DNA from: Bacteroidota bacterium
GTDB taxonomy: Bacteria > Bacteroidota > Bacteroidia > Bacteroidales > WCHB1-69
Direction: 5' to 3'
DNA length: 64,000 nt
Assembly: GCA_037130365.1 (NCBI GenBank)
Contig: JBAXTE010000015.1
Span: forward strand, 4,242-68,241
Program-made: the position numbers and the translations under genes
Notes under the pieces: model-generated
What the model was told of the DNA's origin: nothing
Database searches by the model: none
The model's input: only the letters and a program-made list of their open reading frames with translations
In this document: positions 5,338 through 50,225 of the stretch, one piece after another
Layout: the number at the start of each line of letters is the position of its first letter
How positions within the stretch are numbered: the stretch's first letter is position 1

Positions 5338-5372
5338 TTTGTTTTTAATCAATAATTCAAGTGTATATAATA

Positions 5373-5400: not shown

Positions 5401-5418
5401 TACATAGAAAATTGTCGT

Positions 5419-5982: not shown

Positions 5983-5992
5983 AAATATCCAA

Positions 5993-6274
5993 TTATTTGT
6001 TTAGGTTAATTTCTTTTTTTATCAACTTTTCGTATTCTTTATCTATTAAGTTACTACTCCATTTGAAGGCATATAAGTAATGAAATACAATCGCAACGCC
6101 CCAGCCTACAGTAGGAAGTACTGGCCATGGAAGGGGAAATTTATCAGTGTCGCCATAAGATATAAAAATCCATAGCAACCAAAAAAGAATATTCACTAAA
6201 ATGTAAATTGTAAAGTGAGATTTAAAACCCACACTCCTTTTAGCTTTTTTGTAAATGATTGGATCGTATTCCAT
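5993..6274 (-). CDS. 2TM domain-containing small membrane protein
   Basis: 93 aa with two hydrophobic helices. The pattern (YKKAKRSVGFKSHFTIYILVNILFWLLW...GWGVAIVFHYLYAF) is typical of the 2TM family. Confidence 0.65.
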   Translation of the reverse strand: MEYDPIIYKKAKRSVGFKSHFTIYILVNILFWLLWIFISYGDTDKFPLPWPVLPTVGWGVAIVFHYLYAFKWSSNLIDKEYEKLIKKEINLNK

Positions 6275-6290
6275 AATATTTATATTAAAT

Positions 6291-6998: not shown

Positions 6999-7027
6999 TT
7001 ATTAGTCCATTTTGATGGGTAAAGATA

Positions 7028-7066
7028 AAAAAAAAAGGAATTCGTTGATTGAATTCCTTTTTTTTA
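7028..7066 (-). terminator. rho-independent terminator after tsf
   Basis: ggaattc/gaattcc hairpin (7037-7057) flanked by A-runs and T-runs on both sides. Confidence 0.55.
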
Positions 7067-7079
7067 TTGAAGAAAAAAA

Positions 7080-30975: not shown

Positions 30976-33900
30976 CTATTTTACACTTACACTTCTCGAA
31001 CCATAATACGAATAATAATTTCCATCGTACATTGCATCGGCGCTTACTGGTCCCATTTTGTATGTTCCTTTCGAAACAACTCTAACAAGGTAATAGAAGT
31101 TTTTCACGTACCCCGTAACGGTGGTAAACATCGTAATTCGATCGTCACGCATATCGAGAAACTCTGGAATTGCTCTATCCTTAGTCCATGAATATTCGCG
31201 GTCGGCAGTTAAACGTGGATTCTCAATTTCGAAACATGCTGGCAACATATCGGTTACAGCCACATTTGGGATAGTGCTCTTGTCGGTAGAAATTACCGAT
31301 AACTTCACCACAATCAATGCATTTTGTTCAAAATCATCCCCAGTAATTGGTTTTCCAAAACGGTCGAAAAAGCTTTTCCTGACCATCAAATATTTATCCT
31401 GATCAGCAACATTTCCAGTACGACTTATGCCTTCGGTTTGGTAGAAATAATAAAGTTTCCCAGTACCTGTTTTAGTGATGGTAATAGGTTTATTATTGAG
31501 ATTTTTTGAAGTAATAAAATCTTGATTCTTGAATACTCCAACTTGCTCTCCGCCAGCGGAAATAGTGCCATTAATCACGTTGTTCATATTTTGTTTAGAC
31601 ATCTTTCCAAGTGCCAAAAGTGCAAACGATCGATCTTGTGTAGAAAGCCATCTTGAGTTTTTAACATCAACCGAAAGCTTCCGAGCAATTTGTGTAATTT
31701 GTGGATTAGATGGTTCAGTTTCATTTAGAACATAAAGCACTAACGCCATATTACGAATCATCGAATTAAAACTGCCATCAAAATCACGTTTATAGAGCGG
31801 ATAATCATACTGTTTAGGGAGAATAAAACGATAATTTGCTTTGTCGCCAGATAATCCAAAAGCTGCAGCAAGCAAATATTTGCTCTCTTCGGTGAGTGAA
31901 ATCAGTTTTCCTTTGTAGTGGTTCATTAACGAAATACTAGGCTTGCCCGCCAACGACATCACAAATAATGAGTAACAAACCTCTTGTTTAACCATCTTTT
32001 CTTTGTTGAGTCTGCCGTAAACATCGTAAATGAAATACTCCTCGATTCGGCTCTCTTTGCTCTCTTGGCCGATATATTTGATTCCATTATCAATTACAAG
32101 TTGGTTGACTTCAAATCCTGCTTTTTTAGCTTCAATTAGAAAGTGAATTGCATATGTTGTAGCCCACCAATTCACCTGACCTCCCGACGACCAATAGAGC
32201 ATTCCGCCGTTGTATTGTTGTAATCCTTGCACTTTGTAAATGGCTTCTTGTACCAAATAATCTGGATTCCATTCCATATTTTTGTTCTCTTGATGAATGG
32301 CTTTTGCAATATCACGATAGTAAAGCAATGGGAAAGCTGTGGAAACAGTTTGTTCTAAACAACCGTAGGGATAATGGAGTAATTCGCTCAAATCGCGAGA
32401 AAATTCTACCATTGGAGATTTGCTGACCAATAATTTACTGGTGGCAGAACCTGCAATAAAATCTGCATTTACGGTGAAATTCAACGAATTGCCTTCTACA
32501 ACACCTGCTTCGAATACTTTAATTAATCCGGCAGCCGGACGAATGGTTAAATCGACCTCTTCGCTATAGGTTTTTCCTTCATGAACGGCAGAAACTACCA
32601 CTTGAGATTCTCCAATAATATAATCTGCAGATAAGTTGAATTCCACTCTGCGCTCCGAATTTGCAGGAATAGTAATTGTTTGACTTGTTTCGCCATTAAC
32701 TTTAACTGGTCCTTTATTGCTGATTTTTACCACCACCGAAGCCGATTTTGAAGTGGTATTACTCAATGTTACAGGACATTCAACCTGATCTCCAGGACTT
32801 AAGAAACGAGGTAAAGCAGTGCTGATTACAATAGGATCGGCTACTTTTATGTTGGCTTCTGCAGAACCAAATTTCTTGTCTTTCCAAGCAACAGCCATTA
32901 CTCTCAAACTGCCTGAGAAATGAGGAATATCAAAGGAATACCGTACTTTTCCTGATGTGTTATTCAAAATACCACTCCAAAGTGCGATTAATTTGACCCG
33001 TTTGTTGGTCATCGGATTTACTCGTTTGCTCATATCTAAGGCTAAGTCGCCTCCAAAGCTCGAAGCATAACGTTTTAACTCAGGGAATATTCGTGCATAT
33101 AAATCAAAACTATTGACTTCAAGCGCCCTTTTCTGATAGAAATAATCATACGGATCTGGGGTTTTGTAGTTGGTCATTTGTAAAATTCCTTCATCTACTA
33201 CTGCAATTGTTACCTGTGAGCCAGCTTCAGCAGTAACTTCTACCGTTTGCTTGGTTCTAGAGAACGATTGACCTGGGGCAGTTATAGTTACAGGAAGTTT
33301 ATTTTCTTTCTTTTCAACGGTAATCGGCAATATGCCATGAGCAACAGTCAATGGAATTTCGCTGCTCGTGAGCGACCTAATAGCAGTGGCAGTTACATAC
33401 ATATTTGGAACATAACCATCTTTTATGGGGAGTTTTAGCACCGCCGATTTATCTTTGGCATCCAAAATAAAATAATCCATCACTTCGTTCCGCTCAACAG
33501 TTACAATAATTTTTCCCGAAAATGGACATTTGAATAGTAAATCTGCAGATTCTCCTACATTATAAGATTCTTTGTCTTTTTCTATCAAAATTTCACCATC
33601 TTTATCCACATTGAAGGAAGAAAATTCAGTGTCGGAAGCGCCGTAAGAATAAAATCTTCTGGATACATAACCATCACCTTTATTACTATAGATTCGAATT
33701 TCGTATTCTCCAGATTTAGTAGGAGTATAATTAATCTGAGATTTTCCTCCAGTAAAAGAAACGGTTTGGTTTAATACGACCACTTCTCGCCTATTGGAGT
33801 TGTAGCTGTAATTTGAACCCGACCGCTGAATTACACTTTCGTATTCATTTCGTATGATTTGAACTTTCGTTGAGGTGTTCATTGCAGCTCCTTTTTTGTT

Positions 33901-36477: not shown

Positions 36478-36540
36478 AATTTGAAAATTTGAACAAAATT
36501 AATGGAGTTTACAATAATATTGTAAATTGTTCATAACTTT

Positions 36541-36945
36541 TTTTTGATTATCCTCGAAAAATCACAATCAGCTAGTTTGCGGATATTTTTCGGGAATGAT
36601 TTGAAAATGAAGATAGCTATTTGTAAATTACATCCAATCCGCCTAATTTGCATTATCTGCGTACTGTTATCCGCTTAATCCGTGTTATATTTTTTTGGAA
36701 CGCCGATGAATGCCGATGGTGGCGCTGAAAGTGCCAAATAATAATAACCCCGTGCAAAGCACGGGGTAAAAACGAAAAAACGAATAATTTTTGCGAAAAA
36801 ATTGTTGCGAAGCAAAACTATTTTTATACCAAAATTCTACTTATGGCTCAAAATAAAATTCCAATAAAACCTAAATTTTTCTTGCAATATAGTCATCTGA
36901 TCATCCGCGAAAACCCGCTCAATCTGCTTTATCCGTGTTCTATCG
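36541..36945. repeat. composite 'ATCCGC-word' intergenic repeat element, copy A
   Basis: 36550-36623 aligns by eye with 48523-48599 in the same orientation with few mismatches. It is followed by reiterated ATCCGC(G/C/T) words, a GGAACG..GATGA module, and the end motif ATCCGTGTTCTAT. Confidence 0.85.
36740..36768 (-). terminator. candidate terminator for the metalloprotease gene
   Basis: ccccgtgc-aaa-gcacgggg hairpin (36748-36766), followed on the minus strand by a T-rich tract. Confidence 0.4.
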
Positions 36946-36952
36946 AATTTGC

Positions 36953-39421
36953 TCAATAAACTACAATTTTCTTCACGTCAGACAAGTTATCTCCACTATA
37001 AAGTCGCATAAAATAGATTCCATTACTTAGAGCGGTTCTGTTGATGTTTATTTTATTAGAGTTAATATGATCAAATCGAACTATTTCTTTTCCAAAAATA
37101 TCTACTATCGAAATGGAAGCTTGATTAGAAGCGTTGGAAACAGTAATTATGGCATTTTCAGTAAATGGATTTGGAGAGATAGAAAATGTAGGTTTTAGAT
37201 TTCTTTTTTCAATATTAATGGTTGATTCGCAAGAGACAGTCGCATTCCATCCAGTACCTGTAACGCCTTCATCAGCATGAAATTGAAATGTTAACGCACC
37301 CGAAGGATCTGTGGAGACAATAGTTCCCGGATTATTTGTGCCGCAATACATGCCAATTAATGGACTGCTTGTGGTTGATCCATTGTATATTTTTAGGTAA
37401 TCATAAATACAATCTTGAGAATCTTCAACTTGAAATTCTGCGAAATTTACTTTCACAAATGTATTGGCTGTAGGTGCAACTAATGTAGTGGTATAATCCG
37501 TCATATTCGAGTAATTTGCTACATTTCCACCATTATCGAGAAAAATTGCTGCACAAGTTGCTGATGGCGTTTCACCAATAATTATCTGCTGTCCCACCAT
37601 GATTGATTTTGTTATATAATTGGAAAATGTACCATCAGACACTAGGAATTTAAAATCTATTACGGTTCCAATTGGAGTATTCGCTGCAATCAATATATGA
37701 TAAACGGCTGGAATCATTTGGTTTACAGCTATCACACCTAAAGAAATTGAAGGATTTGAAATTGTGATATATTGCGCATTTGTTCCTATAACCGAACATG
37801 TTGCAGTTGCACTAGAAGAACTTAGTTGTCCTAAATTTTTAATTTGAACATTGAGGTCGGCAGATTCTCCCTGTTCTATAAATCCATTTGAGTTGTTGTC
37901 GTTAGTGATTTGTGTATAATGTACTAAAAATGAAGGCGCTGGTTGACCAAATCCTAATTTGTAGGTCATCACTGGACCGGTATTTCCAATTTGCCAAACT
38001 CTAAGGCTGCTAAGATTTGCGTTATAATAATCAGAATTTGGCGACGTGCTGTTCCCGAATTCAGTGTTAAATCCCAAGTGAAAGCATGCATTTGCATGAT
38101 CGTTCATATCGTTTCCTGCGTGTTCGAGATATACTTCGTGATGTGTGGTTTGGTTGTCGCCGCCCCGATCTATGTGCCAAATGGTTAAACCTTCATCAGG
38201 AATAGATGCACTTCGTCCAACTTGAGTTCTATTTTGGAGTAAGAAAAATTCGTTCGTGTCGTTTGGATTAACGTATTTATAGGCAGTAAGTGTATTTGCG
38301 GTATCTGAATTTAATCCGTTAAAATTGGTGACATCTACTAATTTTCCCCAGCCAGCATTTGATATAAAATGAGGATTTGGCGGAACAGGATTTGTGGCAC
38401 TTGCATAACTACACATTAAATCGAAACTGCCAATTCCATCGGTTCCGTTATCGGAGGTATATTTGTAAGTATCAGGCCACTGACCAATCATGTGTCCATT
38501 TTCGTGAGCTACCACAGCAATTTCTAAAGGCTCTTTGGCTGGGGAACAGTTATAGGCACCCGAATGAACCCCATTTGCAGTAAAATTTGGATAATATCCT
38601 TGATGAAACCACATTCCTTGCGACCAAGTTGGTGGATTCCCTGTGTACATTAGATTTATTGCGGTAATTGAGCCATCGGGATTAGTGGTGAGTGTAGAGA
38701 AATTAAATCCTAAATCTGCAATCCAATTTAATGCTAATCCTAATATTTGTTGTGCGCCCTGAGCCATAGGCATTTGGTCGTATTCGGCAAATGTACTTGG
38801 TGCACGAAAGTAACCATAAACCACATTTTCATAATCTACCAAACCTCCGGAAATATCTGAATAATATTTACGTAAAGATCCATTGTTTCCGAAATTTGAA
38901 TAGGATAAATTATTGCAGAAATTTTCAAATTCACTCATAGGCAAAGTACCTGGTTCATCAGAAAAATCTACAACAATGCATAAACCCTTTATATAGCCAT
39001 TAACAGGATGAGGTGGAGTTTTTGAAATCGAAGTATTCTCATTTTCCAATCCTGCTAATCGACGATTTTTGAGAATCACTTTTTCTCGGTTTTTTGATGA
39101 TATGTCGAGATGTTGAGAAATTCCATTAATATTCCGAATTGAGTTTTGATTGCCGGTATATCGAATTCCTGTGGATATTAATTCAGATTTATCCGCAGAT
39201 AACGTTGCATAACATATCCATTTTGATGTATTTTCTCGAATAAGAGTGTATCCGTCAAGACTTTCTCCTCGCATGTAAAATTCAGTACCATAGAGTTTTA
39301 CATTTACGCTACTACCATCTGGTTGTTTAAATTGCATCACTTTGCCATGGTATGGAACTGCAAAAAGTGTAGCTTGAATTGTGACAAAAAATAGGATAAT
39401 TAAAAAGCGATTTTTCAGCAT
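36953..39421 (-). CDS. secreted zinc metalloprotease (M6/immune-inhibitor-A-like domain) with CUB-like domain and T9SS C-terminal sorting domain
   Basis: Signal peptide MLKNRFLIILFFVTIQATLFA (start trimmed to 39421). 'VVAHENGHMIG' HExxH motif, a CUB-like segment (DCIYDYLKIYNGS...IGMYCG), and a CTD (FSISPNPFTENAIITV...NGIYFMRLY). Confidence 0.72.
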   Translation of the reverse strand: MLKNRFLIILFFVTIQATLFAVPYHGKVMQFKQPDGSSVNVKLYGTEFYMRGESLDGYTLIRENTSKWICYATLSADKSELISTGIRYTGNQNSIRNINGISQHLDISSKNREKVILKNRRLAGLENENTSISKTPPHPVNGYIKGLCIVVDFSDEPGTLPMSEFENFCNNLSYSNFGNNGSLRKYYSDISGGLVDYENVVYGYFRAPSTFAEYDQMPMAQGAQQILGLALNWIADLGFNFSTLTTNPDGSITAINLMYTGNPPTWSQGMWFHQGYYPNFTANGVHSGAYNCSPAKEPLEIAVVAHENGHMIGQWPDTYKYTSDNGTDGIGSFDLMCSYASATNPVPPNPHFISNAGWGKLVDVTNFNGLNSDTANTLTAYKYVNPNDTNEFFLLQNRTQVGRSASIPDEGLTIWHIDRGGDNQTTHHEVYLEHAGNDMNDHANACFHLGFNTEFGNSTSPNSDYYNANLSSLRVWQIGNTGPVMTYKLGFGQPAPSFLVHYTQITNDNNSNGFIEQGESADLNVQIKNLGQLSSSSATATCSVIGTNAQYITISNPSISLGVIAVNQMIPAVYHILIAANTPIGTVIDFKFLVSDGTFSNYITKSIMVGQQIIIGETPSATCAAIFLDNGGNVANYSNMTDYTTTLVAPTANTFVKVNFAEFQVEDSQDCIYDYLKIYNGSTTSSPLIGMYCGTNNPGTIVSTDPSGALTFQFHADEGVTGTGWNATVSCESTINIEKRNLKPTFSISPNPFTENAIITVSNASNQASISIVDIFGKEIVRFDHINSNKININRTALSNGIYFMRLYSGDNLSDVKKIVVY

Positions 39422-39771
39422 GGTTTCTCGAATTAATATTTTGGAAGCAAAGATAGAAAAAAGAAATATACTAATAGCGCAATGGAGCAACGTAAATGGT
39501 GAAAGGTACATGTTTCGAAAAATATCAAATCTTCGATGTTTGTTATTTTAGTGGATAATTGAAAAAATAAAAATTGCTTTAGAAAGTTTCTGCTTTTAGG
39601 GATTACAGGGCCAATGGTTCTTGCTTCTACATACTTACAGTTTATGCATTTACACACATAAACAACATACATTATTCATTTCCGCATTTCCGCTACCACA
39701 AGCATTTAGGAACACTTAACTAGAATTATTCTAAATTTTGTTTTCATTCTAATATGTATATAAATTAAATG

Positions 39772-39779: not shown

Positions 39780-39885
39780 TACAAATTTTTAAAATGGTGA
39801 ATTATCTCACCATGTATTGTACTGTATTTACGCTAAATATCTGTTTATCTGTTAATTTTTGAAGACGCATTTAATAATAAAAAAT

Positions 39886-42800
39886 ATGAAAAAACAAATT
39901 TCCTCATTAAAATCCATTTTTGGTACAGTTGCACTTCTAGTTGCAATGCTCACCCCGAATATGAGCTGGGGACAATATTCAGGTACTGGTACGTTTACAA
40001 AAATTACATCTCTTACTGATTTAACAGATGGCTATTATGTGGTTGCGTATGGGACAACTTTTGCGATGAGCAATACAAATGCAGGAACTTTTTTTGCAAG
40101 TACTTCAATAACACCTGTATCAAGTGTAATTACTAATCCAACAGCGGCAATAGTTTGGAAAATTCAAACACATGCAGATGGTGGTAGAACAATATATAAT
40201 GAGGCCACTTCAAAATATGTATCTTTTACCGGTACATCTAATGCAGCAATGGCTGTTGCAAGTGTAACAGGTGGTTCAGAACGTTGGACTTTTGCTTGGT
40301 CATCCACCGTTTTTACTGTTACAAATGTAACTACCACAACAAGACTTTTGAAGTATAATACAGCATCACCACGTTTTGCTTGCTATACTACTGGTCAACA
40401 AGATATTACTCTTTATAAAATGCCTAGTTCTCTCACTACACCAACTTTATCGCCAGATATCATTGCAAATACTGTAGATAATCCTATAGATATCACATTT
40501 ACAGATGACGCTGCTTGGAGAACTGCCATAACAGCAGTAAAAATTGGTGGAACAGCGTTAACCGCTACTACAGATTATGTAATTACTGCCGGCAATATTC
40601 AATTAAAACCATCGGGTGGAAATGTATTATTAACAGCATCTGGTTCAAAATCAGTTACTGTAGAAGCCAATGGCTATAGCGCAGCACCTGCTACTCAAAT
40701 AATTAATGCTGGTGTGCCAACTGCCAACTCTACAACTTCTATAAATTTGGCATTAGCGCCAAATACCTCCCGAACGGTTACTTGTACTGCAAAAGATCAA
40801 TATAATAATTTGGTTTCTGGTTATACGTTTAAATATGATGCATCTATAACAAATAACAATGCCACTACCTCAGAGTCATATACCATTGATGGAACAGCTC
40901 GTACATCTACAACAAATGATGTTAATGTTGCAACTGCTACAAATGTAAGTGGTGTAGCAACTTTTACTGTTGCTGTTCCTGCAACATTAGATGGTAGCGA
41001 CGGAATTAGCGTTCAAGTGCAATTATCAAATGGGTCTACAAATATTGGATCAGCATTCTCGTATGCACAATTAGCATCTCAAACAATTACTTTTGGAACG
41101 CTTTCACCTGTCACGTATGGTGATGGAACTTTTGCTATTTCTGCAACTGGTGGTGGCTCTGGTAACGCAGTAATTTTTACCAGTTCAAATACTGCTATGG
41201 CCACTTGTACGGGCACTAATGGAACTACAATCACTATTATTGCTCCAGGAACCTGCACCATTTATGCTGACCAAGCAGGTAATGGAAGTTATAACGCAGC
41301 AATTCAGGTTGGGCAATCACTACTTATTAATAAAAAAGAACTAACTGTTACTGGCGCTACTGGAAATAATAAAGTATATAGTGGAACCAATGCTGCTACA
41401 ATTTCAGGGACTTTATCTGGGGTTATTGGAGCTGATGTGGTTACATTAAATAAAACTGGAACATTTGCTACTGTTGATGTTGCAACTGATATTGTTGTTA
41501 CATCAACTTCTACTCTTTCGGGTACTGATGCTGCAAAATATTCTCTCACTCAACCAACCGGATTAACTGCTGATATTACAAAAGCAGCTCAAACGATTAC
41601 CTTTGGCGCATTAACAAACAAAACCGTTAACGATGCAGATTACGCTCCGGGTGCAATTTCCGCTACATCTGCAACTAATCCAATTTCGTATACCAGCTCA
41701 AATCTTGCAGTTGCCACTATAGTTGCAAATCAAATACATATTATGGGAGTTGGAACAACGACCATAACCGCTTCACAAGCAGCAAGTGCTAATTATAATG
41801 CTGCTACAGATATACCTCAATCATTAACAGTTACTACTGGACCAATATTGGCATGGCAGTTTGGATCTCCAGCTTCTACAGGAAGTGAAGCTACTTTTAC
41901 AGCAACAACAATTAATTCCAATATAAATACATCTTCACTTTCTAGAGGAGTTGGTATAATGGCTACTGGTTTGGCTAGAGGATTTTCTGCTAATGATTGG
42001 ACTCCTGCTGCTACAAAAGCAACAGCCGTTACTAATAATGACTATTACCAGTTCACTGTTAAAGCAAAAGTAAATTATAAAGCTTCACTATCATCATTGG
42101 ATGCGACTTTGCGCCGAACTTCAACTGGACCTAATGCTTATATTTGGAAATACAGTCTAGATGGAACAAATTTTACTGAAATTGGTTCTGATGTTAGTTT
42201 TACAGGTACTGCTGATGGAGCTGCTCAAACTCAAATAAATTTATCTGGAATTTCAGAACTTCAAAATGTTACAAATGCTACCACAATTACTTTCAGATTA
42301 TATGCTTGGGGAGCAACTGATGTTTCAGGCACATTTGCAGTTGCTAGATATGCAGCTGGTATCACAACAAATTGTTTAGCAATTGGTGGTACTGTTGAAT
42401 GTGCTACACCAGCCACTCCTACAACAACGTTAACTCAACCTACTTGTGCAGTTCAATCGGGAACAATTACCATTACTGCTCCCACGGGTGTGACATATAG
42501 CATTGATGGGTCCGATTACTCAAATAATACTGGTATCTTTAGTGGTCTAGCACCAAACACATACAGCGTGACAGCAAAGAATGTTTGTGGCGCTATTTCA
42601 GCTGTTGCAAGTGTAACCATCGATCCAATTCCTGCAACACAATGGACTGGTGCTACCAACAACGAGTGGAGCATAGGAACCAATTGGTGTGGGGGAGTTG
42701 CTCCATCTTCATCAACAGACGTAATTATTCCTTCAGGAAAATCACCACAAATTAATTCAGCAGTTGGAAGTCCAGCTGAGTGTAATAACTTAACTATTCA

Positions 42801-44532
42801 ATCGGGTGGTACTTTGACAATTAACGCAGGAAAAGCGCTTACAGCTTATGGAAATACAGTTATTGAAGGAACTTTTACCGTTAAAGCAGATGTATCTAGT
42901 GCTGGTAGTTTTATTAGCAAAGGTACCGTAACAGGAACTGCAAATGTTGAACGTTGGGTAAGTATTGTAAATAGTAATAATGGCAATACCCAACGTTGGG
43001 AATATATTTCATCTCCAATCGCATCTGCTTCATCAGCACTATTTACAACAAGTATTCATGGATTAAGATATGTGAATGAACCTACAAACACTTGGGTGAG
43101 AATTGATAATGCAGCTCCTCAAACGATGGCAATTTTTAAAGGGTATACCAGAAGTTATCAATCGGCTACAAACGATGGTGGTAATCAGGCAATTACTTAT
43201 AATGGTGCATTAAATACAGGTTCACAATCTATTGGACTAACATATACCGCTGCAGCACCAGGAACTAACCATGGTTGGAATTTAGTGGGTAATCCATACC
43301 CAAGTGCTATTGATTGGGATGCAGCTTCGGGTTGGACTAAATCAAACATCGATGGTGCCATTTATTTTCGCAAAAACGGTACAGCATGTACATATTTAAA
43401 AGATGCTGCTACTGGTGGAGCATCAAACATAATTCCTCCAATGCAAGCATTCTGGGTTAGAGTATCTGCTAATTCTACACTTACTTGTACCGATGCTGTT
43501 AGAGTTCACGTTGCTATACCAGCATACAAAACCACACCAGAAAACACACTCCATCTTACGGTTTCTACGAATGGAAAAAGTGGCTTATCCGATGATACTT
43601 ACATTCGTTTTAAAGATTATGCTACCGATGTTTTTGATAATTCTTGTGATGCGTTTAAAATGTTTGCAGAAGATGCAGCATTTCCTCAAATATACACCAT
43701 AACTGGCACTGATTCTTTGGCAATCAATAGCTTAAGTGCATTAACTAGCGATCGTGTTATTCCACTCATGTTCAAATCAACTGCTGTTGGAACATTTACA
43801 CTTACTGCCGAATTGGTTTCGAGTTTTGCAAATAGTGGCTATTATGTTTTCTTGAAAGATAAAGAAACCGGAATCATTCAAAACTTATCGGAAAATCCTC
43901 ATTATCAATTTTCTACATCCACAATAAAAGGAAACGATCGTTTTGAAGTTCAGTTTAAATCAAATACAACTCCATTGCCAATTGACCTAATCAGTTTCGA
44001 TGCAAAATGTGTGAACAACCAAGTCGCATTAAACTGGTCAACTGCTTCAGAAGTAAACAATGACTTTTTCTCAATTGAACGTAGCAAAGATGTTTTAAAT
44101 TGGGATTTAGTAGAAAAAATTCATGGTGCTGGCAATAGTAATCATTTGATAAATTATTCGTCAAAAGATGTTGAAACAACTGGTGGCACTTCATATTACC
44201 GCTTAAAACAAACCGACTTTGATGGCAAAACCGTTACCTATAGTCCTGTAACCGTTACTTGTGCTGATAATTCTACACAAACATCAGTATCATATTTTCC
44301 AAATCCATTTACATCGGAAGTAAAAGTAGAAGTTAAAAACTCAACATCAGAAACCGCTACTGTTACAATTTACGACATCTTTGGAACAAAAGTTTATACA
44401 AGGGTTCTAAATATCGATGAACTTGGGGACAAATCAATTATCTTGAATCTATCTGATTTAGCAGCTGGTGTTTATGGCGTAGAATTTCGTTCCGCAACAT
44501 ATTCTAATATTTCAAAAATCGTGAAAAAATAA
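39886..44532 (+). CDS. giant cell-surface adhesin-like protein with Ig-like/MBG-type repeats and T9SS C-terminal sorting domain
   Basis: The ATG at 39886 gives signal peptide MKKQISSLKSIFGTVALLVAML. T/S/A-rich Ig-like repeats include ..KVYSGTNAATISGTLSGVIGADVVTLN..AAKYSLTQPTGLTADITK... CTD (SYFPNPFTSEVKVEV...AGVYGVEFR). Confidence 0.8.
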   Translation: MKKQISSLKSIFGTVALLVAMLTPNMSWGQYSGTGTFTKITSLTDLTDGYYVVAYGTTFAMSNTNAGTFFASTSITPVSSVITNPTAAIVWKIQTHADGGRTIYNEATSKYVSFTGTSNAAMAVASVTGGSERWTFAWSSTVFTVTNVTTTTRLLKYNTASPRFACYTTGQQDITLYKMPSSLTTPTLSPDIIANTVDNPIDITFTDDAAWRTAITAVKIGGTALTATTDYVITAGNIQLKPSGGNVLLTASGSKSVTVEANGYSAAPATQIINAGVPTANSTTSINLALAPNTSRTVTCTAKDQYNNLVSGYTFKYDASITNNNATTSESYTIDGTARTSTTNDVNVATATNVSGVATFTVAVPATLDGSDGISVQVQLSNGSTNIGSAFSYAQLASQTITFGTLSPVTYGDGTFAISATGGGSGNAVIFTSSNTAMATCTGTNGTTITIIAPGTCTIYADQAGNGSYNAAIQVGQSLLINKKELTVTGATGNNKVYSGTNAATISGTLSGVIGADVVTLNKTGTFATVDVATDIVVTSTSTLSGTDAAKYSLTQPTGLTADITKAAQTITFGALTNKTVNDADYAPGAISATSATNPISYTSSNLAVATIVANQIHIMGVGTTTITASQAASANYNAATDIPQSLTVTTGPILAWQFGSPASTGSEATFTATTINSNINTSSLSRGVGIMATGLARGFSANDWTPAATKATAVTNNDYYQFTVKAKVNYKASLSSLDATLRRTSTGPNAYIWKYSLDGTNFTEIGSDVSFTGTADGAAQTQINLSGISELQNVTNATTITFRLYAWGATDVSGTFAVARYAAGITTNCLAIGGTVECATPATPTTTLTQPTCAVQSGTITITAPTGVTYSIDGSDYSNNTGIFSGLAPNTYSVTAKNVCGAISAVASVTIDPIPATQWTGATNNEWSIGTNWCGGVAPSSSTDVIIPSGKSPQINSAVGSPAECNNLTIQSGGTLTINAGKALTAYGNTVIEGTFTVKADVSSAGSFISKGTVTGTANVERWVSIVNSNNGNTQRWEYISSPIASASSALFTTSIHGLRYVNEPTNTWVRIDNAAPQTMAIFKGYTRSYQSATNDGGNQAITYNGALNTGSQSIGLTYTAAAPGTNHGWNLVGNPYPSAIDWDAASGWTKSNIDGAIYFRKNGTACTYLKDAATGGASNIIPPMQAFWVRVSANSTLTCTDAVRVHVAIPAYKTTPENTLHLTVSTNGKSGLSDDTYIRFKDYATDVFDNSCDAFKMFAEDAAFPQIYTITGTDSLAINSLSALTSDRVIPLMFKSTAVGTFTLTAELVSSFANSGYYVFLKDKETGIIQNLSENPHYQFSTSTIKGNDRFEVQFKSNTTPLPIDLISFDAKCVNNQVALNWSTASEVNNDFFSIERSKDVLNWDLVEKIHGAGNSNHLINYSSKDVETTGGTSYYRLKQTDFDGKTVTYSPVTVTCADNSTQTSVSYFPNPFTSEVKVEVKNSTSETATVTIYDIFGTKVYTRVLNIDELGDKSIILNLSDLAAGVYGVEFRSATYSNISKIVKK

Positions 44533-44550
44533 ATAGAAAATATATTCAAA

Positions 44551-44739
44551 ATGAAAATCAAAGAAACAGAAAAGAATAGGTATTGTAGCCCCGAAATTCG
44601 AGTGATAAAAATTGATCATGAGATTTCGTTAGTGATGGCATCAGCAACAGGCGGTGGCGACCCTCCTCCAGGAGATGAAAATTCATCAATACAACCAGAA
44701 CGCTTTGGTGGCAATCCATTTAAACTGCCTACAGCGTAA
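44551..44739 (+). CDS. candidate RiPP precursor peptide (62 aa) with lasso-type leader motif
   Basis: MKIKETEKNRYCSPEIRVIKIDHEISLVMASATGGGDPPPGDENSSIQPERFGGNPFKLPTA. It has a YxxPxI motif, an ASA|T AXA site, T-G|G followed by D/E at core positions 8/9, and a locally GC-rich Gly/Pro core. It lies 18 nt after the adhesin stop and just upstream of the PqqD gene. Confidence 0.45.
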   Translation: MKIKETEKNRYCSPEIRVIKIDHEISLVMASATGGGDPPPGDENSSIQPERFGGNPFKLPTA

Positions 44740-44768
44740 TCTATAAAAGTTCTAATCGTATATAGCAT

Positions 44769-44813
44769 CATAGCTCTTTCAAACAATTTGAGAGGAGTTA
44801 TGGTGTTTTTTTT
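44769..44813 (+). terminator. candidate (attenuating) terminator after the small ORF
   Basis: Long imperfect hairpin catagctctttcaaa-caa-tttgagaggagttatg, followed by gtgtttttttt. Confidence 0.4.
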
Positions 44814-44908
44814 GAACGCAGATGTCTCAGCTGAATGCAGATTGCGCAGATTATTTTTGTTTTTATCCGCGAAGATCCGCCTGATCTGCCTAATTCGTGT
44901 TCTATTTA
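44812..44908. repeat. 'ATCCGC-word' repeat element, short copy B
   Basis: ttgaacgcagatg..gaatgcagat...tatccgcgaagatccgcctgatctgcctaattcgtgttctatttat parallels 48633-48720 and 36696-36945. Confidence 0.8.
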
Positions 44909-44984
44909 TTTAGTGATATATTCATCAGATGACTATTTACATCCTCTACTTAAAGATTTTTTGTATTTTTACATAAAAAATCAG

Positions 44985-45266
44985 ATGGACTTATCAGAAT
45001 TATACCATAAGAAATCAAGTTTTGCAGCAAGAAATGTCGGTACAGAGATTATCTTAGTGCCAGTTAAAAATAGTGTTGCTGATATGAACGAGTTATTTAC
45101 TTTAAACGAAGTTGGTAGTTTTATCTGGAATCATATTGATGGAGAAAAGTCTGAAAATGATATTGTTAAAGCACTAATTGTTGATTTTAACGTAGATGAA
45201 GAAAGAGCAATTAAAGATGTGAAGGAATTTATAGAAAGTTTAAAAGCTCTGATTGAAAAATCTTAA
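44985..45266 (+). CDS. PqqD-family protein (RiPP recognition element, lasso B1-like)
   Basis: 93 aa from the ATG at 44985. '..GTEIILVPVKN...LFTLNEVGSFIWNHIDGEKSENDIVKALIVDFNVDEERAIKDVKEFIESL' fits the PqqD pattern. The 50 codons upstream in the ORF track merely translate repeat copy B. Confidence 0.78.
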   Translation: MDLSELYHKKSSFAARNVGTEIILVPVKNSVADMNELFTLNEVGSFIWNHIDGEKSENDIVKALIVDFNVDEERAIKDVKEFIESLKALIEKS

Positions 45267-45269: not shown

Positions 45270-46154
45270 GTGTCAATTTTGAATTCGAAAACTATTTGTA
45301 TTGCTGGCTTTATTATAAAATTATGTTCTGAAAATCAGGAGGGATTTCTTTTAGAGGAAGGATTTATTCCATTTCTGATCAATCATAATTCAAATGATTT
45401 TGATGTGTCGATAACTAGTGTAATTGGAATTCCAGAGGCTTTATTGATGACAGATAATTTGCTTTTTGAAGCTAAAAATGAACAACAAAAATTCTTTTCA
45501 ATTTATCAGCAGGGTGAATCGTATAAATTTATTGTTTATAATCAACAGCTAGATAACAATGAAATTCAGCAGGTAGCAATCCTGAATCAAGACTTAAATA
45601 ATTGGATTGTATATTCAGCAAAATCTGAAAATAATGAATTAGTATATCCCATTTTATATCCGTTGGGTCCATTAGTGATGTATTATTTAACCGTAAAATA
45701 TGATGCGATTATGATTCATGCTTCTGGTGTTTTTGATGGACAGTATGGTAGGATTTTTTCTGGAGTATCAGGAACTGGAAAATCAACGATTTCCTTTTTG
45801 TGGCAAAAAAATGGAAGTTTAATTATTAACGACGATCGTTTAATCATTCGCAAAGAGCACGATGATTATTACATATACAACACACCCATGTTTTACGCTG
45901 ATATTCCTAAAAGAACTCAATTGCATTCGGTAAACTTAATTCATCATGCTTCAAGAAATAATGCAATTCGACTAAATGGAGCCATGGCTGTTTCGCAATT
46001 AATGGCTTTCTGTATACAACATAGCTATAATAATGCTTTCTTAGAACATCACCTCGAGTTTCTTTCTGGACTTTGCGCCCAATTGCCCGTGTACGATTTA
46101 GGGTTTTTACCTGACGATAATATTGTTAATTATATAAAAGCAAATGCAGTCTGA
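45270..46154 (+). CDS. HPr kinase (HprK)-like serine kinase family protein
   Basis: 294 aa with a GTG start 3 nt after the PqqD stop. 'IHASGVFDGQYGRIFSGVSGTGKSTISFLWQKNGSLIINDDRLII' parallels the HprK/P C-terminal domain (H.G.....G.G.L..G.SG.GKS....L...G..L..DD). Confidence 0.72.
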   Translation: MSILNSKTICIAGFIIKLCSENQEGFLLEEGFIPFLINHNSNDFDVSITSVIGIPEALLMTDNLLFEAKNEQQKFFSIYQQGESYKFIVYNQQLDNNEIQQVAILNQDLNNWIVYSAKSENNELVYPILYPLGPLVMYYLTVKYDAIMIHASGVFDGQYGRIFSGVSGTGKSTISFLWQKNGSLIINDDRLIIRKEHDDYYIYNTPMFYADIPKRTQLHSVNLIHHASRNNAIRLNGAMAVSQLMAFCIQHSYNNAFLEHHLEFLSGLCAQLPVYDLGFLPDDNIVNYIKANAV

Positions 46155-48387
46155 TCAATTATTTAATGAATTACATGAGCTGATTGACGAATTGCTTACC
46201 GATAATAAATGGGTAAAGCTCAAGGTTGGCGGGTATAGTATGTTCCCCTTTTTTAAGAATGGTGAGATTATTACCATTAAAAAATGTCCTGCTTCTGAAC
46301 TTGTAATAGGAGATGTGGTTGTTTTTAAAATTAGGGATAAATGGATTGCGCATCGGTTAATCAAAATCCAACTTATTGACAACAAAAAGATTCTAATTAC
46401 CAAAGGAGATTCATGCAAAAAAATAGATTCAAAGTTTGCTGAAGAATGCATTATTGGTAAAGTTGTATCTTTTTCTAAGAATCATCAACCGAAAAGCCTT
46501 GAAACGAAATATTATAAAATTATTGGAAGGATTATGGCTCAGTTTTCGACCATTGTTACCCCGTTTATTGTCGCTTTATTATGGCTAGTTTTGCGAGTAA
46601 TGAGAGTTTATAAAAGCATTAAGAATGTCTTTAAAAGTATGTTCTTTATTTGCCGAGATTCAAGGCGCATCGCATTCGTGAACATACTTATTTCTGTTTT
46701 TCAAGGAGTTCTACCTTTCGTAATTATTTATTTGATTAAACGATTAGTTGATGCAATTTCGGTAGTCAATTCATACACTGATAAGATTGATGCATATAAA
46801 GTAATCGGGGTTATTATTGTGGTCACAGGCATTGCTTTTCTAGCGCAATCTATCTTATCGATTATAGGTAATGAAATTCGGGTAAGGCTTACTCAGTCGA
46901 TTACGATGTATATTTATAGGTTGCTTCATAAAAAATATTCTTCATTAGAAATGGCTTATATTGAAGATGCAAATCAACAGGATGTTATTCATCGTGCAGT
47001 TCAAGAAGCTGGTTTTAGACCAATTAAAATGGTAAACGAAAGTCTTTCGGTAGTTCAATCTTTAGCCTCTTGGTTATTTATTGCAGTGATCTTGTTTACA
47101 ATACATTGGGCTGTTTTTTTTCTGATAATAATTGCTGTTTTACCAGGTTTTTTAATCCGGATTAAATATTCAAAGAAATTTTATAATCTAAATAAAGAGA
47201 ATAGCCCAAAAGAGCGTGAAGCACATTATTACAATAGAATTTTAACAGGACTGCCCTTTGCTAAGGAACTTCGGCTCTTCGGTCTTGAGAATTTCTTCAC
47301 TGGCAGATTTAATAATATTCAAAAAGATTTATACCATAAAAAAAACAAATTATCTCGGAAGCAGGCAATTGCAGATATTTATGCACAGACTTTTGCTATC
47401 GTGGTTATCTTTTTGTCCTTTGGATTTGTTGCTTATCTTGGCGTTAATGGTTCAATATCAATCGGCACAGTGGTGCTTTTCTTTTTGATTTTTCAGAGAG
47501 GATTTTCTGTAATGAAAGACCTTTTTCAGTCAATTGCAGGGTTATTTGGTGACAATGTTTTTATAAATGATTTCTTTTATTTTTTGAAATTTTCGCCACT
47601 GCAAGAATTGTCCGAAGTTAAAGAAACGATAGCTCCATTACAAAAAGGAATTGTGGTCGAAAATGTGAGCTTTCATTATCCTTCTAGCCAACGGCAAGCA
47701 CTTCAATCAATTTCATTACAAATTCCTGCGGGCAAAACGGTGGCGCTTGTGGGAGCAAATGGATCGGGAAAAACAACCCTCGTCAAATTACTTTGTGGGT
47801 TTTATACTCCACAGCAAGGTAGAATCTTATTCGATAATATAGATATTTCATCGATAAATCCTGACGAAATTCGTGAGCAAATTTCTGCCGTTTTTCAAGA
47901 TTTTGCATTATATAATTTAACAGCAAAAGAGAATATTGCTCTTGGGATGAATTCAAAACCGATAAATGATAGCGAAATTGAACAATCAGCATCTAATTCT
48001 GGTATTGCAGAAGTCCTTGCTAAACTCCCAAACGGATACGATAGTTTGCTTGGGAATTTGTTCGAAAAAGGGGAGGAGCTTAGCATTGGTCAGTGGCAAA
48101 AAATTGCAATTGCTAAAGCTTTTTATCGGAATACGCCAATACTTTTTATGGACGAACCATCGAGTGCACTAGATGCAGAAACAGAATTACATATTTTGAA
48201 CAACTTAAAATTATTGGCAAAAGATAAAACAACCCTCATAATAAGTCATCGTTTTTCGACAATTAAGTGGGTGGATGTGATATATGTTTTAGACGAAGGT
48301 GTTGTTGTCGAAAGTGGCGATCATGAAAAATTAATGGCATTAGAAGGCAAGTATTTTAATATGTATCAGCACAGTGTGAATAAATAG
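46144..48387 (+). CDS. ABC exporter (6-TM + NBD) fused to an N-terminal S26B (SipW/Sec11-type) signal-peptidase-like domain
   Basis: 747 aa; the start overlaps the kinase stop by 11 nt. N-terminal ~120 aa carry 'GGYSMFP', 'IAHRLI' and 'ITKGDS'. Then comes an extra hydrophobic helix, six TM helices, Walker A 'GANGSGKTT', signature 'LSIGQWQ', Walker B 'ILFMDEPSSALD' and 'ISHR'. Confidence 0.82.
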   Translation: MQSDQLFNELHELIDELLTDNKWVKLKVGGYSMFPFFKNGEIITIKKCPASELVIGDVVVFKIRDKWIAHRLIKIQLIDNKKILITKGDSCKKIDSKFAEECIIGKVVSFSKNHQPKSLETKYYKIIGRIMAQFSTIVTPFIVALLWLVLRVMRVYKSIKNVFKSMFFICRDSRRIAFVNILISVFQGVLPFVIIYLIKRLVDAISVVNSYTDKIDAYKVIGVIIVVTGIAFLAQSILSIIGNEIRVRLTQSITMYIYRLLHKKYSSLEMAYIEDANQQDVIHRAVQEAGFRPIKMVNESLSVVQSLASWLFIAVILFTIHWAVFFLIIIAVLPGFLIRIKYSKKFYNLNKENSPKEREAHYYNRILTGLPFAKELRLFGLENFFTGRFNNIQKDLYHKKNKLSRKQAIADIYAQTFAIVVIFLSFGFVAYLGVNGSISIGTVVLFFLIFQRGFSVMKDLFQSIAGLFGDNVFINDFFYFLKFSPLQELSEVKETIAPLQKGIVVENVSFHYPSSQRQALQSISLQIPAGKTVALVGANGSGKTTLVKLLCGFYTPQQGRILFDNIDISSINPDEIREQISAVFQDFALYNLTAKENIALGMNSKPINDSEIEQSASNSGIAEVLAKLPNGYDSLLGNLFEKGEELSIGQWQKIAIAKAFYRNTPILFMDEPSSALDAETELHILNNLKLLAKDKTTLIISHRFSTIKWVDVIYVLDEGVVVESGDHEKLMALEGKYFNMYQHSVNK

Positions 48388-48513: not shown

Positions 48514-48720
48514 TTTTTCGAGAATCCTCTAAAAATCACAATCCGCTAGTTCGCGGATCTATTTTTAGGGAATGATTTGAAAATGGAGATAGCAATTTGC
48601 TTATCCTGCTCAATCCGCGTTCTATTTATATTTGGAACGTGATGACCCAGATGAATGCTGATTTTTGTTTTTTTAATCCGCGAATATCCGCTCAATCCGC
48701 GTAATCCGTGTTCTATTTAT
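48514..48720. repeat. composite 'ATCCGC-word' intergenic repeat element, copy C
   Basis: 48523-48599 matches 36550-36623. It is followed by ..atcctgctcaatccgcgttctattta.. ggaacgtgatgacccagatgaatgctgat ...aatccgcgaatatccgctcaatccgcgtaatccgtgttctatttat. Confidence 0.85.
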
Positions 48721-48721: not shown

Positions 48722-49912
48722 TTATTTTTTGATAATTGTTTTTTTTATTAGAAATAAGAGTTCGAAAAGGCCAGCTTTTAATCGAACCAAATAATACAAA
48801 AAAATCAGCCATTTACTTTTAATCTGATATCGCTTTCGCATATAATTTGAAGAAGGAAATATGTCATTCAAAAGATATTTAAATTTATTTCCAAATCCCG
48901 AAACTCGCTTTATTGCTTCTACGCTTGTATTTGATATTGTTTTTTTTATTTCTATAGTATCCCCTTTGAAATAGGATATAAATAATTGTTCAAAATCTTG
49001 TTCAAATGACTGATAAACATTTGATTGTATTTCTTCTGGTAATAAAGCTCCAAAATATTTATTAATAATATAAAGATGCCGATTCACATTTTTTGTGCAA
49101 TTATACTTTATACATGTCTGATTAAAAGTATCCCAATTAAATTCGTCTTTATAAAACTTCAGCACTGCCGCAATGTCGCAATACGAATAAAGTTGAATTT
49201 TTCCATACATAAAATGGTAGTCTAAATGTAGGCAAAGATGTTGTAATAAGTCGTTCGGCGATAATGCTAAACACTTCGAGTTATTGATTGTAACAGGTTG
49301 AGCATTTTGCCAATAATCATCGATATCAACATAATATTCACAATTGCTGGGATGAATTTTTAAATGTAATTCAACCGGAATATTTTCTTTTAAAAGTTGA
49401 GGTAAGTGCTTTATATCAGTATTCCTTTTTATAAAATCTGATTTGTAACGATCTTCGCATACAAAGCCAATATTGATTAAGGAGTTTTTGCAATTTTCTG
49501 CATCATCAACTTTCACAAGTAAGTCAATATCGCTCATTTGGCGGATTCCCAAATCTTTATAAATGCAGTTGACCAGAAAGATTCCCTTTAAAGCAATCAC
49601 CGGAGTTCCTAGCTCTGAAATTGCATTAATGACATCGTTAAAATTTTTATAGATGATTTCATTTCGAAAAAAAGACTGGTAATAGGTCTGTTTTAATTTT
49701 GATATTGTAGAATCAGGAATTGAAGAATAATTAATGGCATATGAAAGGTTCTTATAAATTAATGGACCTACGCTATTGCGAATTACATTGTTGGTAAAGT
49801 TATCCCAATCGTTTACGTTACTAATCAATTGCTCCATTGATAAAATCTCATCATCTGAAGGATGAAGTCTAGCTGCTGCAAATATTAGTTTATCTTCAAC
49901 GGAAATTGTCAT
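48722..49912 (-). CDS. uncharacterised nucleotidyltransferase family protein (NTP_transf_5 / PF14907-like)
   Basis: 396 aa. 'IALKGIFLVNCIYKDLGIRQMSDIDLLVKVDDAENCKNSLINIGF' matches the family core (LKG....Y.D.G.R...DIDLLV). Confidence 0.7.
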   Translation of the reverse strand: MTISVEDKLIFAAARLHPSDDEILSMEQLISNVNDWDNFTNNVIRNSVGPLIYKNLSYAINYSSIPDSTISKLKQTYYQSFFRNEIIYKNFNDVINAISELGTPVIALKGIFLVNCIYKDLGIRQMSDIDLLVKVDDAENCKNSLINIGFVCEDRYKSDFIKRNTDIKHLPQLLKENIPVELHLKIHPSNCEYYVDIDDYWQNAQPVTINNSKCLALSPNDLLQHLCLHLDYHFMYGKIQLYSYCDIAAVLKFYKDEFNWDTFNQTCIKYNCTKNVNRHLYIINKYFGALLPEEIQSNVYQSFEQDFEQLFISYFKGDTIEIKKTISNTSVEAIKRVSGFGNKFKYLLNDIFPSSNYMRKRYQIKSKWLIFLYYLVRLKAGLFELLFLIKKTIIKK

Positions 49913-50123: not shown

Positions 50124-50138
50124 GTTTAAAATTGATTG

Positions 50139-50225
50139 CGGAGAGATAGGGATTCGAACCCTAGGACCCCTCGCGAGGTCAACAGTTTTCGAGACTGCCC
50201 CAATCGACCACTCTGGCATCTCTCC
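50139..50225 (-). tRNA. tRNA-Ser (anticodon CGA), class II with long variable arm; CCA not encoded
   Basis: GGAGAGATGCCAGAGTGGTCGATTGGGGCAGTCTCGAAAACTGTTGACCTCGCGAGGGGTCCTAGGGTTCGAATCCCTATCTCTCCG folds by hand into a cloverleaf. The acceptor is GGAGAGA/TCTCTCC, the anticodon loop is CTCGAAA, and the T-arm is TAGGG-TTCGAAT-CCCTA. Confidence 0.88.

Follow-up and report, generated by a model that had tools for sequence, protein, structure and literature searches.

Exporters that cut a peptide and carry it across the membrane are known from the peptidase-containing ATP-binding cassette (ABC) transporters (PCATs), also termed ABC-transporter maturation and secretion (AMS) proteins, such as PCAT1, ComA and LagD. 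In the literature searched, peptidase-ABC fusions of this cut-and-export kind carry C39 cysteine peptidases only. Among the S26 peptidases, SodX (the nickel superoxide dismutase maturation protease, TIGR02754) removes an N-terminal pro-peptide in the cytoplasm. Further described systems are the lasso peptide clusters for paeninodin (pade), pseudomycoidin (psm) and that of Bradymonas (bsf), which comprise the genes A, B1, B2, C, D, K and N (PMC10368454). We analysed a stretch of 64,000 nucleotides from a Bacteroidota bacterium (GenBank assembly GCA_037130365.1, contig JBAXTE010000015.1, positions 4,242 to 68,241; the whole stretch is called the window below), in which one open reading frame (ORF) encodes an S26B-like peptidase domain, a hydrophobic helix and an ABC exporter in a single protein. 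We put the probability at roughly 0.6 that this fusion is a bifunctional leader peptidase and exporter, PCAT-like in its plan but with the C39 domain replaced by a Sec11/SipW-type Ser-His-Asp domain. 'Cleave and export' appears to be the best reading because a conserved S26B domain, a complete exporter and a peptide-maturation gene cluster occur together. The features discussed are listed with their window coordinates in Table 1.

The fusion protein was compared with Pfam, which found Peptidase_S24 (PF00717; residues 16–108; 26.2 bits, the gathering cut-off being 23.3), ABC_membrane (178–450) and ABC_tran (520–673) in one chain. The first-pass annotation, made from the letters alone, had proposed this architecture, and all the strings that it quoted were found in the ORF where it had placed them: GGYSMFP at residues 29–35, IAHRLI at 68–73, ITKGDS at 85–90, and the hydrophobic stretch AQFSTIVTPFIVALLWLVL at 132–150. 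When the N-terminal 156 aa were searched alone, they matched TIGR02228 (archaeal-type signal peptidase I) with 69.2 bits, above the cut-off of 51.85 (E 3.5e-19). The models for SipW (E 1.8e-7) and bacterial signal peptidase I (E 8.5e-6) scored lower. Twenty-two family members supplied their N-terminal 215 residues for a profile, which was compared with solved structures; the best matches were human SEC11C (E 7.9e-11) and SEC11A (E 3.9e-10), followed at a distance by bacterial signal peptidase I (E 7e-5) and LexA (E 0.05–0.1). In the profile alignments the SMYP, AHR and KGD boxes of the family fell on GSMEP, HRV and TKGDNN of SEC11A/C. The N-terminal 215 residues were also modelled with AlphaFold2 at a mean predicted local distance difference test score (pLDDT) of 84.6, and the top 40 Foldseek matches of this model were all peptidases of clan SF (S24/S26; beta-barrel fold), namely SEC11C/A, LexA, UmuD, SipA and SpsB. 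Because of the TIGR02228 match, the SEC11 profile matches and Foldseek matches confined to clan SF, the domain is assigned to the S26B type. Hence, the N-terminal domain of the protein is an S26B-type (Sec11/SipW-like) fold with Ser32, His70, and the two aspartates Asp89 and Asp95, whose six-residue spacing we take to match that of D103 and D109 in Sec11.

Conservation of these residues was followed in an alignment of 115 full-length homologues (44–62% identity). G30, S32, M33, P35, G56, H70, R71 and G88 were invariant, and D89 and D95 were each kept in 114 sequences. Walker A, Walker B, the Q-loop, LSIGQWQK and the H-loop were likewise invariant. The proposal of a Ser/His peptidase domain is thus borne out, both by the model score above cut-off and by the invariance of S32 and H70. 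It may be asked whether the domain processes any substrate at all, or is a degenerate docking domain or a LexA-type self-cleaving switch of the pump. Pfam does file it under Peptidase_S24, the LexA family, and some known ABC exporters carry a peptidase-like domain that is inactive, e.g. the C39-like domain of HlyB. Yet Ser, His and both Asp are invariant or nearly so, which speaks for catalysis; all the 115 sequences have His as the general base and not the Lys of LexA and UmuD, and LexA matched about 10^9-fold worse than SEC11. Moreover, LexA and UmuD cut themselves at an Ala-Gly or Cys-Gly site N-terminal to the domain, and here about 20 residues precede the domain and no upstream self-cleavage segment is present. 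LexA-like self-cleavage was rejected on the last three grounds (the His for Lys, the E values of LexA and the length ahead of the domain), and we regard a non-processing domain as highly doubtful.

The exporter half is complete, as had been claimed: besides the two Pfam domains it contains Walker A (GANGSGKT, 537–544), the ABC signature (646–650), Walker B (ILFMDE, 666–671) and the H-loop histidine (His702). The signature reads LSIGQ, with Ile in place of a Gly of canonical LSGGQ, and the longer form LSIGQWQK is family-wide. No C39 (papain-like cysteine peptidase) domain was found in the fusion by Pfam, and the NCBIfam models of PCAT type matched residues ~156–745 only. The NCBIfam MsbA model PRK11176 aligned residue 159 of the fusion with model position 9, and ABC-only homologues began to match at residues ~145–200. 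A full-length AlphaFold2 model was obtained with a pLDDT of 87.5 and a predicted template-modelling score (pTM) of 0.75. Foldseek with this model gave PCAT1, MsbA and Sav1866 as the best matches, PCAT1 being the best structural match of all; the alignment to PCAT1 covered ~745 columns at a root-mean-square deviation of 12 Å and is uninformative on domain placement.

The fusion is widespread. A full-length search returned at least 285 proteins with the same architecture at E<=1e-30 from independent assemblies; the best 120 of these were nearly all 707–761 aa long, 44–62% identical to the query and covered 95–100% of it. Their source annotations read 'signal peptidase I' or 'ABC subfamily B'. 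Paludibacter propionicigenes WB4, whose genome is finished (CP002345.1), encodes one homologue, and in species-representative genomes the fused form occurred in ~17 loci labelled Bacteroidales, Paludibacter or Tenuifilaceae. One bin carries the label Alphaproteobacteria, where a binning error is possible. When the N-terminal 175 aa only were used as the query, 35 stand-alone proteins and zero fusions were retrieved, a result subject to the word-index limit of that search.

An assembly or frameshift artefact that joined two genes was among the explanations considered. Unfused gene pairs do occur (L091 and L028; L-numbers denote the related loci compared with the window), and L001, the closest relative by the N-terminal query, carries a stop codon that makes gene callers split it into a 191-aa 'peptidase' and a 547-aa ABC protein. 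That split, however, is due to a single in-frame TAG (L001 positions 3576–3578) at the place of TAT in the window (46729–46731, Tyr196), inside the first transmembrane helix (TM1), and the junction between the two parts is identical and in the same frame as in the window. The TAG is a sequencing error or the mark of a young pseudogene and supports the fused frame. With at least 285 homologues from many independent assemblies, a complete isolate genome included, all in the same continuous frame, the artefact explanation is refuted and its probability is negligible.

The origin of the fusion was traced through its stand-alone relatives. With a profile, 1.84 billion representatives were searched exhaustively; 64 matched at E<=1e-30, and among the best 150 representatives ~20 were fused (722–765 aa) and ~120 stood alone (108–211 aa). 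The stand-alone proteins match the peptidase domain and the helix that follows it, up to profile position ~150–160. One of them, P0004, scored 66.7 bits with TIGR02228 and weakly with TIGR02754 (E 1.1e-5). In L091, genes for PqqD, ScmC, an S24 protein (150 aa), an ABC protein (596 aa) and NTP_transf_5 are separate and follow one another in the order of the window. The trio of PqqD, ScmC-like and S24 genes is followed by NTP_transf_5 only in L090, and by neither ABC nor NTP_transf_5 in L089 and L002. The conserved core is therefore the trio of PqqD, the P-loop protein and the S26B-like peptidase. By its alignments, the window gene is a peptidase of the stand-alone type fused to the adjacent exporter gene; two neighbouring genes would have been joined, because the unfused relatives keep the same gene order. 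Likewise, what had looked like an extra helix before the exporter corresponds, as judged by alignment, to the tail helix of the stand-alone peptidase and is not part of the ABC core.

This helix bears on the side of the membrane at which the peptidase works. The first-pass annotation had raised the possibility of a domain that faces the periplasm, while noting that no anchor precedes it. The lack of an anchor holds: there is no N-terminal hydrophobic segment, and residues 3–19 form an acidic, soluble helix where S26B enzymes carry the anchor that puts their catalytic domain on the trans side. As to the helix at 132–150, its best 19-residue Kyte-Doolittle (KD) value is 2.08 in the window against a family median of 1.18. 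A KD of 1.6 is reached in 24 of the 115 members, compared with all 115 for TM1 and TM2 (minima 1.68 and 1.79). The summed Hessa insertion energy gave the same picture, with family medians of +8.0 for the extra helix, +2.4 for TM1, −2.0 for TM2 and +5.0 for TM6, and with +1.8 for the helix and +2.6 for TM1 in the window protein. By these measures, the helix resembles a membrane-spanning one in the window's clade only. Both flanks of the helix hold a median of 5 K+R over the 115 members; for the 117-aa peptidase domain, which holds about 18 K+R and lacks a signal peptide, the median net charge is +3. With domain and flanks basic and a signal peptide missing, moving the N-terminal part across the membrane would be unfavourable. 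The 124 stand-alone relatives also are without an N-terminal hydrophobic segment (best 15-residue KD in the first 35 residues, <=1.51). Their last 45 residues form a basic amphipathic tail (median 9 K+R against 1 D+E; hydrophobic moment ~0.5) that reaches KD 2.0 in two of the 124. In the AlphaFold2 model, residues 135–169 form one continuous helix running into the segment aligned with the MsbA elbow, and TM1 spans 171–206. PqqD and the ATP-using partner are cytoplasmic proteins. Taken together, the hydropathy of the helix, the charges, the anchorless relatives, the modelled helix and the cytoplasmic partners favour the cytoplasmic face, and we consider it likely that the peptidase is held there, as it is in PCATs.

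The opposite topology deserves a full statement. Residues 132–150 would be a seventh membrane helix in the window's clade, the S26B domain would lie in the periplasm, and the precursor would be exported whole and cut afterwards. Such a topology would suit the hydrophobicity of the helix in this clade (KD 2.08 and Hessa +1.8, similar to TM1), the K/R-rich loop after it, which looks as a cytoplasmic loop would, and the textbook AXA site (ASA↓T, the arrow marking the cut) of the window's peptide; moreover, all characterised S26B enzymes work, to our knowledge, on the trans side. But in most of the family this helix is not hydrophobic, although the catalytic set and the partner genes stay the same, and members of one family are unlikely to differ in the side at which they work. 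The N-terminal flank is no less basic than the C-terminal one, so that moving it across the membrane together with a domain of ~18 K+R is improbable. Nor do the stand-alone relatives have an anchor by which they would be held outside, and the AXA site is not conserved. A periplasm-facing domain is accordingly judged unlikely.

The genes upstream of the fusion point to peptide maturation. The order PqqD, HprK/ScmC-like P-loop protein, fusion was found in all the 18 related loci with sufficient upstream flank. The PqqD protein, of a family of leader-binding RiPP recognition elements (RREs; RiPP, a peptide made by the ribosome and modified after translation), is nearest to the lasso-type and Scm-type PqqD models of NCBIfam (ScmD, E 2.9e-8). 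Its mechanical ORF begins at 44835 (143 aa). Homologues of 91–94 aa begin at the Met at 44985, which is probably the true start, the 150 nt upstream (44835–44984) being a non-coding spacer. Orthologues of the P-loop protein match Pfam ScmC in precomputed annotation, and in the window its gene runs 11 nt into the fusion gene before it stops. Searches of solved structures with the sequences of this kinase-like protein and of the NTP_transf_5 protein gave nothing meaningful. The transglutaminase-like leader protease B2 and the Asn-synthetase-like cyclase C of lasso clusters are absent within 15 kb (ORFs of window 26.7–62 kb), and neither was found in the related loci with gene calls. Another protease must remove the leader because B2 and C are missing.

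The small peptide of 62 aa encoded upstream is the candidate precursor. The first-pass annotation had called it adjacent to the fusion; its gene in fact lies 1.4 kb upstream, with the PqqD and kinase-like genes in between. We aligned 15 neighbouring precursors and then searched for the family with a profile. The family comprises at least 160 clusters of peptides of 49–82 aa, all annotated as hypothetical. In 121 precursors Y11, P14 and D22 were kept in 100%, I25 in 98% and S31 in 98% (the rest having Thr), followed by P39 (97%), P40 (91%), P43 (95%), P56 (99%), F57 (98%) and K58 (88%), and position +5 of the leader motif was I, V, L or M. The consensus of these sequences is KRxYxxPxIERIxLDNEISLxLES-TPPxGPGE...APEYFNNDPFKTNxA. 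Lasso leaders are recognised by B1 proteins through a Tyr at −17, a Pro at −14 and a Leu at −12, and the family precursors carry Y(-17), P(-14) and I/L(-12) with the same spacing (PMC10368454). We infer that the 62-aa peptide is the likely substrate of the fusion.

The cut had been placed by the first-pass annotation at ASA↓T (residues 30–33), and this did not stand: the site is not conserved. Directly behind the conserved Ser, the window's peptide carries an insertion of its own, ATGGGD. One residue upstream lies a junction that the family does conserve, L-x-L/M-x-Ser (Ser in 98%) followed by T-P-P. The most likely candidate for the cut is thus L-x-L/M-x-Ser↓(Thr)-Pro-Pro, which in the window is VMAS↓A. 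Judged from the aligned precursors, Ser at −1 with an aliphatic residue at −3 is compatible with a signal-peptidase-like specificity. Alternatively, the peptide may be cut at the lasso position, after L27. The leaders of PCAT substrates bear a double glycine (GG, GA or GS), and no conserved GG motif was seen among the 121 precursors; the GGG of the window's peptide falls in its unique insertion.

For the peptide as substrate, the position of the cut, the cytoplasmic orientation and the chemical modifications, we infer the following course. The precursor of ~60 aa would be bound by the PqqD protein through its lasso-type YxxPxI leader, and the HprK-like P-loop protein and the NTP_transf_5 enzyme may modify it. 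The S26B-like domain, kept at the cytoplasmic membrane face by the helix before TM1, would then remove the leader, most likely at or next to the conserved junction; in the window the bond would be that of VMAS↓A or, one residue on, ASA↓T. Finally, the ABC moiety would pump the Pro-rich C-terminal part, ending in (N/D)PFK, across the inner membrane. Several points weigh against this course. Classical S26 peptidases cut at the membrane's trans side, and the helix of the window protein, as hydrophobic as its TM1 by the Hessa energies, may be a seventh membrane helix in this clade. At the candidate junction, position −3 is Leu or Met and not a small residue, and in the precursors of L001 and L092 a Pro stands right after the conserved Ser, which would block a classical signal peptidase. 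The stand-alone peptidase clusters L089, L090 and L002 have no ABC gene nearby, so that coupling of peptidase and pump is not obligatory. Lastly, the Paludibacter-type clusters (L085, L094 and others) have no precursor gene beside them.

The precursor genes proved to be paired with genes for large type IX secretion system (T9SS) cargo proteins. In the window, the peptide gene begins 18 nt downstream of such a gene, and the two form one unit; residues 1480–1557 of the cargo are a Por_Secre_tail domain by Pfam and NCBIfam. In the first loci compared, all 14 evaluable precursor genes lay 4–147 nt (typically ~20) downstream of a gene whose large product ends in a type A sorting domain of the T9SS. 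The same pairing held for two dispersed precursor genes that have no processing cluster within 10 kb (16 of 16 in total). Up to three pairs stand in a row in one locus (L087, L092), and the stretches concerned are 39859–44739 in the window, 1–7473 and 13116–17111 in L087, 1–8630 in L092, 1–8762 in L093, 6195–10183 in L095 and 6019–10177 in L097. The N-termini of the cargos are variable, and common to them is a module of ~330 aa before the C-terminal domain (CTD) with the motifs NLVGNPYPS, PxMQAFWV and RFxLHFG. This module, for which there is no Pfam family, was found in the window's cargo and in those encoded upstream of 15 further precursor genes. The Paludibacter-type clusters lack an adjacent precursor because the cargo-peptide pairs are dispersed. 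Upstream of the cluster, positions 30976–39511 on the opposite strand (−) encode a bacterial alpha-2-macroglobulin of 1833 aa and another T9SS cargo of 852 aa with CUB and Por_Secre_tail; no peptide gene of the family follows this 852-aa CUB cargo in the window.

The pairing suggests that the role of the peptide is tied to its cargo protein. A tentative and rather unlikely extension of this idea is that the peptides, instead of being independent products akin to antibiotics, are dedicated partners of one family of T9SS cargos, and that a single trans-acting machine (PqqD, the kinase-like protein, the cytoplasm-facing Sec11-type peptidase-ABC protein and the nucleotidyltransferase) processes them and delivers them to the periplasm, where they would bind, modify or become attached to the cargo in the course of type IX secretion. 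If so, peptide maturation chemistry would be newly linked to a protein secretion system, and cis-side action of an S26B peptidase would be seen for the first time.

The cargos also allow a different assignment of the peptidase, as a dedicated signal peptidase for large T9SS cargos of which the small peptide is no substrate. In Bacillus, SipW is the dedicated signal peptidase for TasA and TapA; the domain studied here is SipW/Sec11-like, and in the window's clade the cluster adjoins one to three genes for large secreted cargos. Such a role, however, needs an active site in the periplasm. PqqD and the kinase-like protein constantly adjoin the peptidase, and the cargo does not. The Paludibacter-type clusters have no cargo-peptide pair directly upstream, and pairs also lie more than 10 kb from any such cluster. 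A leader-binding PqqD protein, besides, points to the small peptide with its YxxP leader as the substrate. We find the cargo signal peptidase very improbable, and leader removal from the small peptide stays the preferred function.

Table 1. Features of the peptidase-exporter locus, with positions in the 64,000-nucleotide window.
Feature	Position	Strand	Basis
Large T9SS cargo protein, 1557 aa (Shr-like_HID, YDG, ~330-aa module, type A CTD)	39859..44532	+	Pfam, NCBIfam
Precursor peptide, 62 aa; leader YxxPxI (Y11, P14, I16), D22-x-E-I-S-L-V-M-A-S31, putative core ending NPFK	44551..44739	+	
Hairpin (18-bp stem, A+T-rich) followed by T8, after the precursor gene and before PqqD	44766..44813	+	fold
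PqqD-family leader-binding (RRE) protein	44985..45266	+	Pfam PqqD E 8.2e-17; best NCBIfam model lasso_PqqD_Bac
HprK/PEPCK-type P-loop protein (ScmC-like), putative peptide kinase	45270..46154	+	HprK_rel_B E 3.3e-7, PEPCK_ATP E 2.7e-5
Fusion gene: S26B-like peptidase, helix, ABC exporter	46144..48387	+	747-aa ORF
S26B-like peptidase domain, residues ~20–118	46201..46497	+	TIGR02228, profile against solved structures, Foldseek, conservation
Codon of Ser32	46237..46239	+	
Codon of His70	46351..46353	+	
Codon of Asp89	46408..46410	+	
Codon of Asp95	46426..46428	+	
Hydrophobic helix, residues 132–150	46537..46593	+	matches C-terminal tail helix of stand-alone peptidases
Basic segment, residues 159–175	46618..46668	+	aligns with N-terminal elbow region of MsbA-type exporters
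Six-helix transmembrane domain, type-I ABC exporter, residues 176–481	46669..47586	+	Pfam ABC_membrane, AlphaFold2 helices, Foldseek
Nucleotide-binding domain, residues 502–747	47647..48384	+	Pfam ABC_tran E 5.7e-32, motifs, invariant columns
Codons of Walker A	47752..47775	+	
Codons of LSIGQ	48079..48093	+	
Codons of Walker B	48139..48156	+	
Codon of His702	48247..48249	+	
Two-way terminator-like hairpin between the convergent fusion and nucleotidyltransferase genes	48541..48558	.	sequence
NTP_transf_5 nucleotidyltransferase, frequent cluster accessory	48722..49912	−	Pfam E 1.8e-53

The remaining features of the locus concern its expression and its borders. The RNA fold of the 245-nt spacer between the precursor and PqqD genes (44740–44984) had z = −3.5, and none of 200 shuffled sequences folded as well. 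Its hairpin with the T8 run resembles a terminator or an attenuator placed before the enzyme genes, an arrangement as expected for one that would yield a surplus of precursor transcript. An intergenic element at 44865–44889 was considered as a repeat and rejected, being single-copy in the window. The NTP_transf_5 gene holds the same position in L001, L005, L006, L009, L085, L087, L093 and L094. Just past the cluster lies a tRNA-Ser(CGA) gene (50138–50225, −), which several spurious ORFs overlap.

Relatives of the exporter half were also seen elsewhere. ABC exporters without a peptidase but with LSIGQWQK (L029–L084, e.g. L029 6001–8668 and L075 6001–8563; 35–40% identity) are common in cyanobacteria, Anaerolineae and Desulfobacterota, and an NTP_transf_5 gene often follows directly, which suggests an older pair of ABC protein and nucleotidyltransferase behind the LSIGQWQK exporters. 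Two loci of Desulfobacterota, L062 and L074, bring together a leader peptide whose pattern is similar, PqqD, an S26B-like protein and an LSIGQWQK ABC protein. There the S26B-like protein is separate (L062 3908–4819; L074 ~3898–4755), lies in radical-SAM (SynChlorMet-like) cassettes and has an extra C-terminal domain of ~170 aa; its nucleophile is a Cys (GTCMYP), with the His kept. The neighbouring Cys-rich peptide of 74 aa has a leader KPELIAL...ETVLMG of similar pattern. These two loci may represent a natural switch of the nucleophile from Ser to Cys.

In the full-text literature searched, which excluded subscription-only papers, neither an S24/S26-ABC fusion nor this cluster was found described, and no text joined PqqD to T9SS; an earlier description may exist elsewhere. 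If the proposed function is true, a second, unrelated peptidase clan would be found on such a pump, and 'cleave while exporting' would have arisen more than once. For peptide engineering, the specificity of leader removal would differ from the double-glycine rule. An anchorless Sec11-type enzyme, probably intracellular, would widen the known roles of the fold. The cluster also marks a large peptide family (at least 160 clusters) in Bacteroidota, a phylum with few known ribosomal peptide products, and the strict pairing of peptide and T9SS cargo genes suggests a link to protein secretion.

How the locus relates to the systems described at the outset can now be stated. Like PCAT1, ComA and LagD, the fusion has an N-terminal peptidase, a six-helix exporter core and a nucleotide-binding domain in one chain; it is clustered with small precursor peptides, and its peptidase is probably cytoplasmic too. 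It differs in that the peptidase is of clan SF (S26B, Ser-His-Asp) instead of clan CA (C39, Cys-His), in that its substrates have no conserved double-glycine, with leader recognition probably left to a separate PqqD protein, and in that a helix inherited from the stand-alone peptidase joins the two parts. With the S26B enzymes (SEC11A/C, Bacillus SipW, archaeal signal peptidase I) it shares the SM.P, HR and GD boxes and the second Asp. Unlike them, it has no N-terminal anchor, probably works at the cytoplasmic side, is fused to an ABC exporter and is accompanied by genes of peptide maturation, not of Sec. SodX provides a precedent for cis-side action of the S26 fold; the scores lie far below the TIGR02754 cut-off, the substrate is another one, and SodX is not known to be linked to an ABC exporter or PqqD.

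A lasso peptide cluster was considered as an identity for the locus, given the YxxPxI leader and the PqqD protein, and was rejected: the product cannot be a lasso peptide because neither B2 nor the cyclase C lies within 15 kb. Of the lasso clusters that contain K and N, the locus keeps A, B1 (PqqD type), K (HprK-like), D (ABC) and N (NTP_transf_5), and at the place of B2 action it has the S26B-like protease, joined to D. Missing, too, is the conserved C-terminal Ser that serves the lasso kinases as phosphorylation site. The SynChlorMet cassette of TIGRFAMs/NCBIfam (ScmC, ScmD and the radical SAM enzymes ScmE/F) is similar in that the PqqD protein matches ScmD and orthologues of the P-loop protein match ScmC; it differs from the present cluster by its radical SAM enzymes, none of which occurs in the window.

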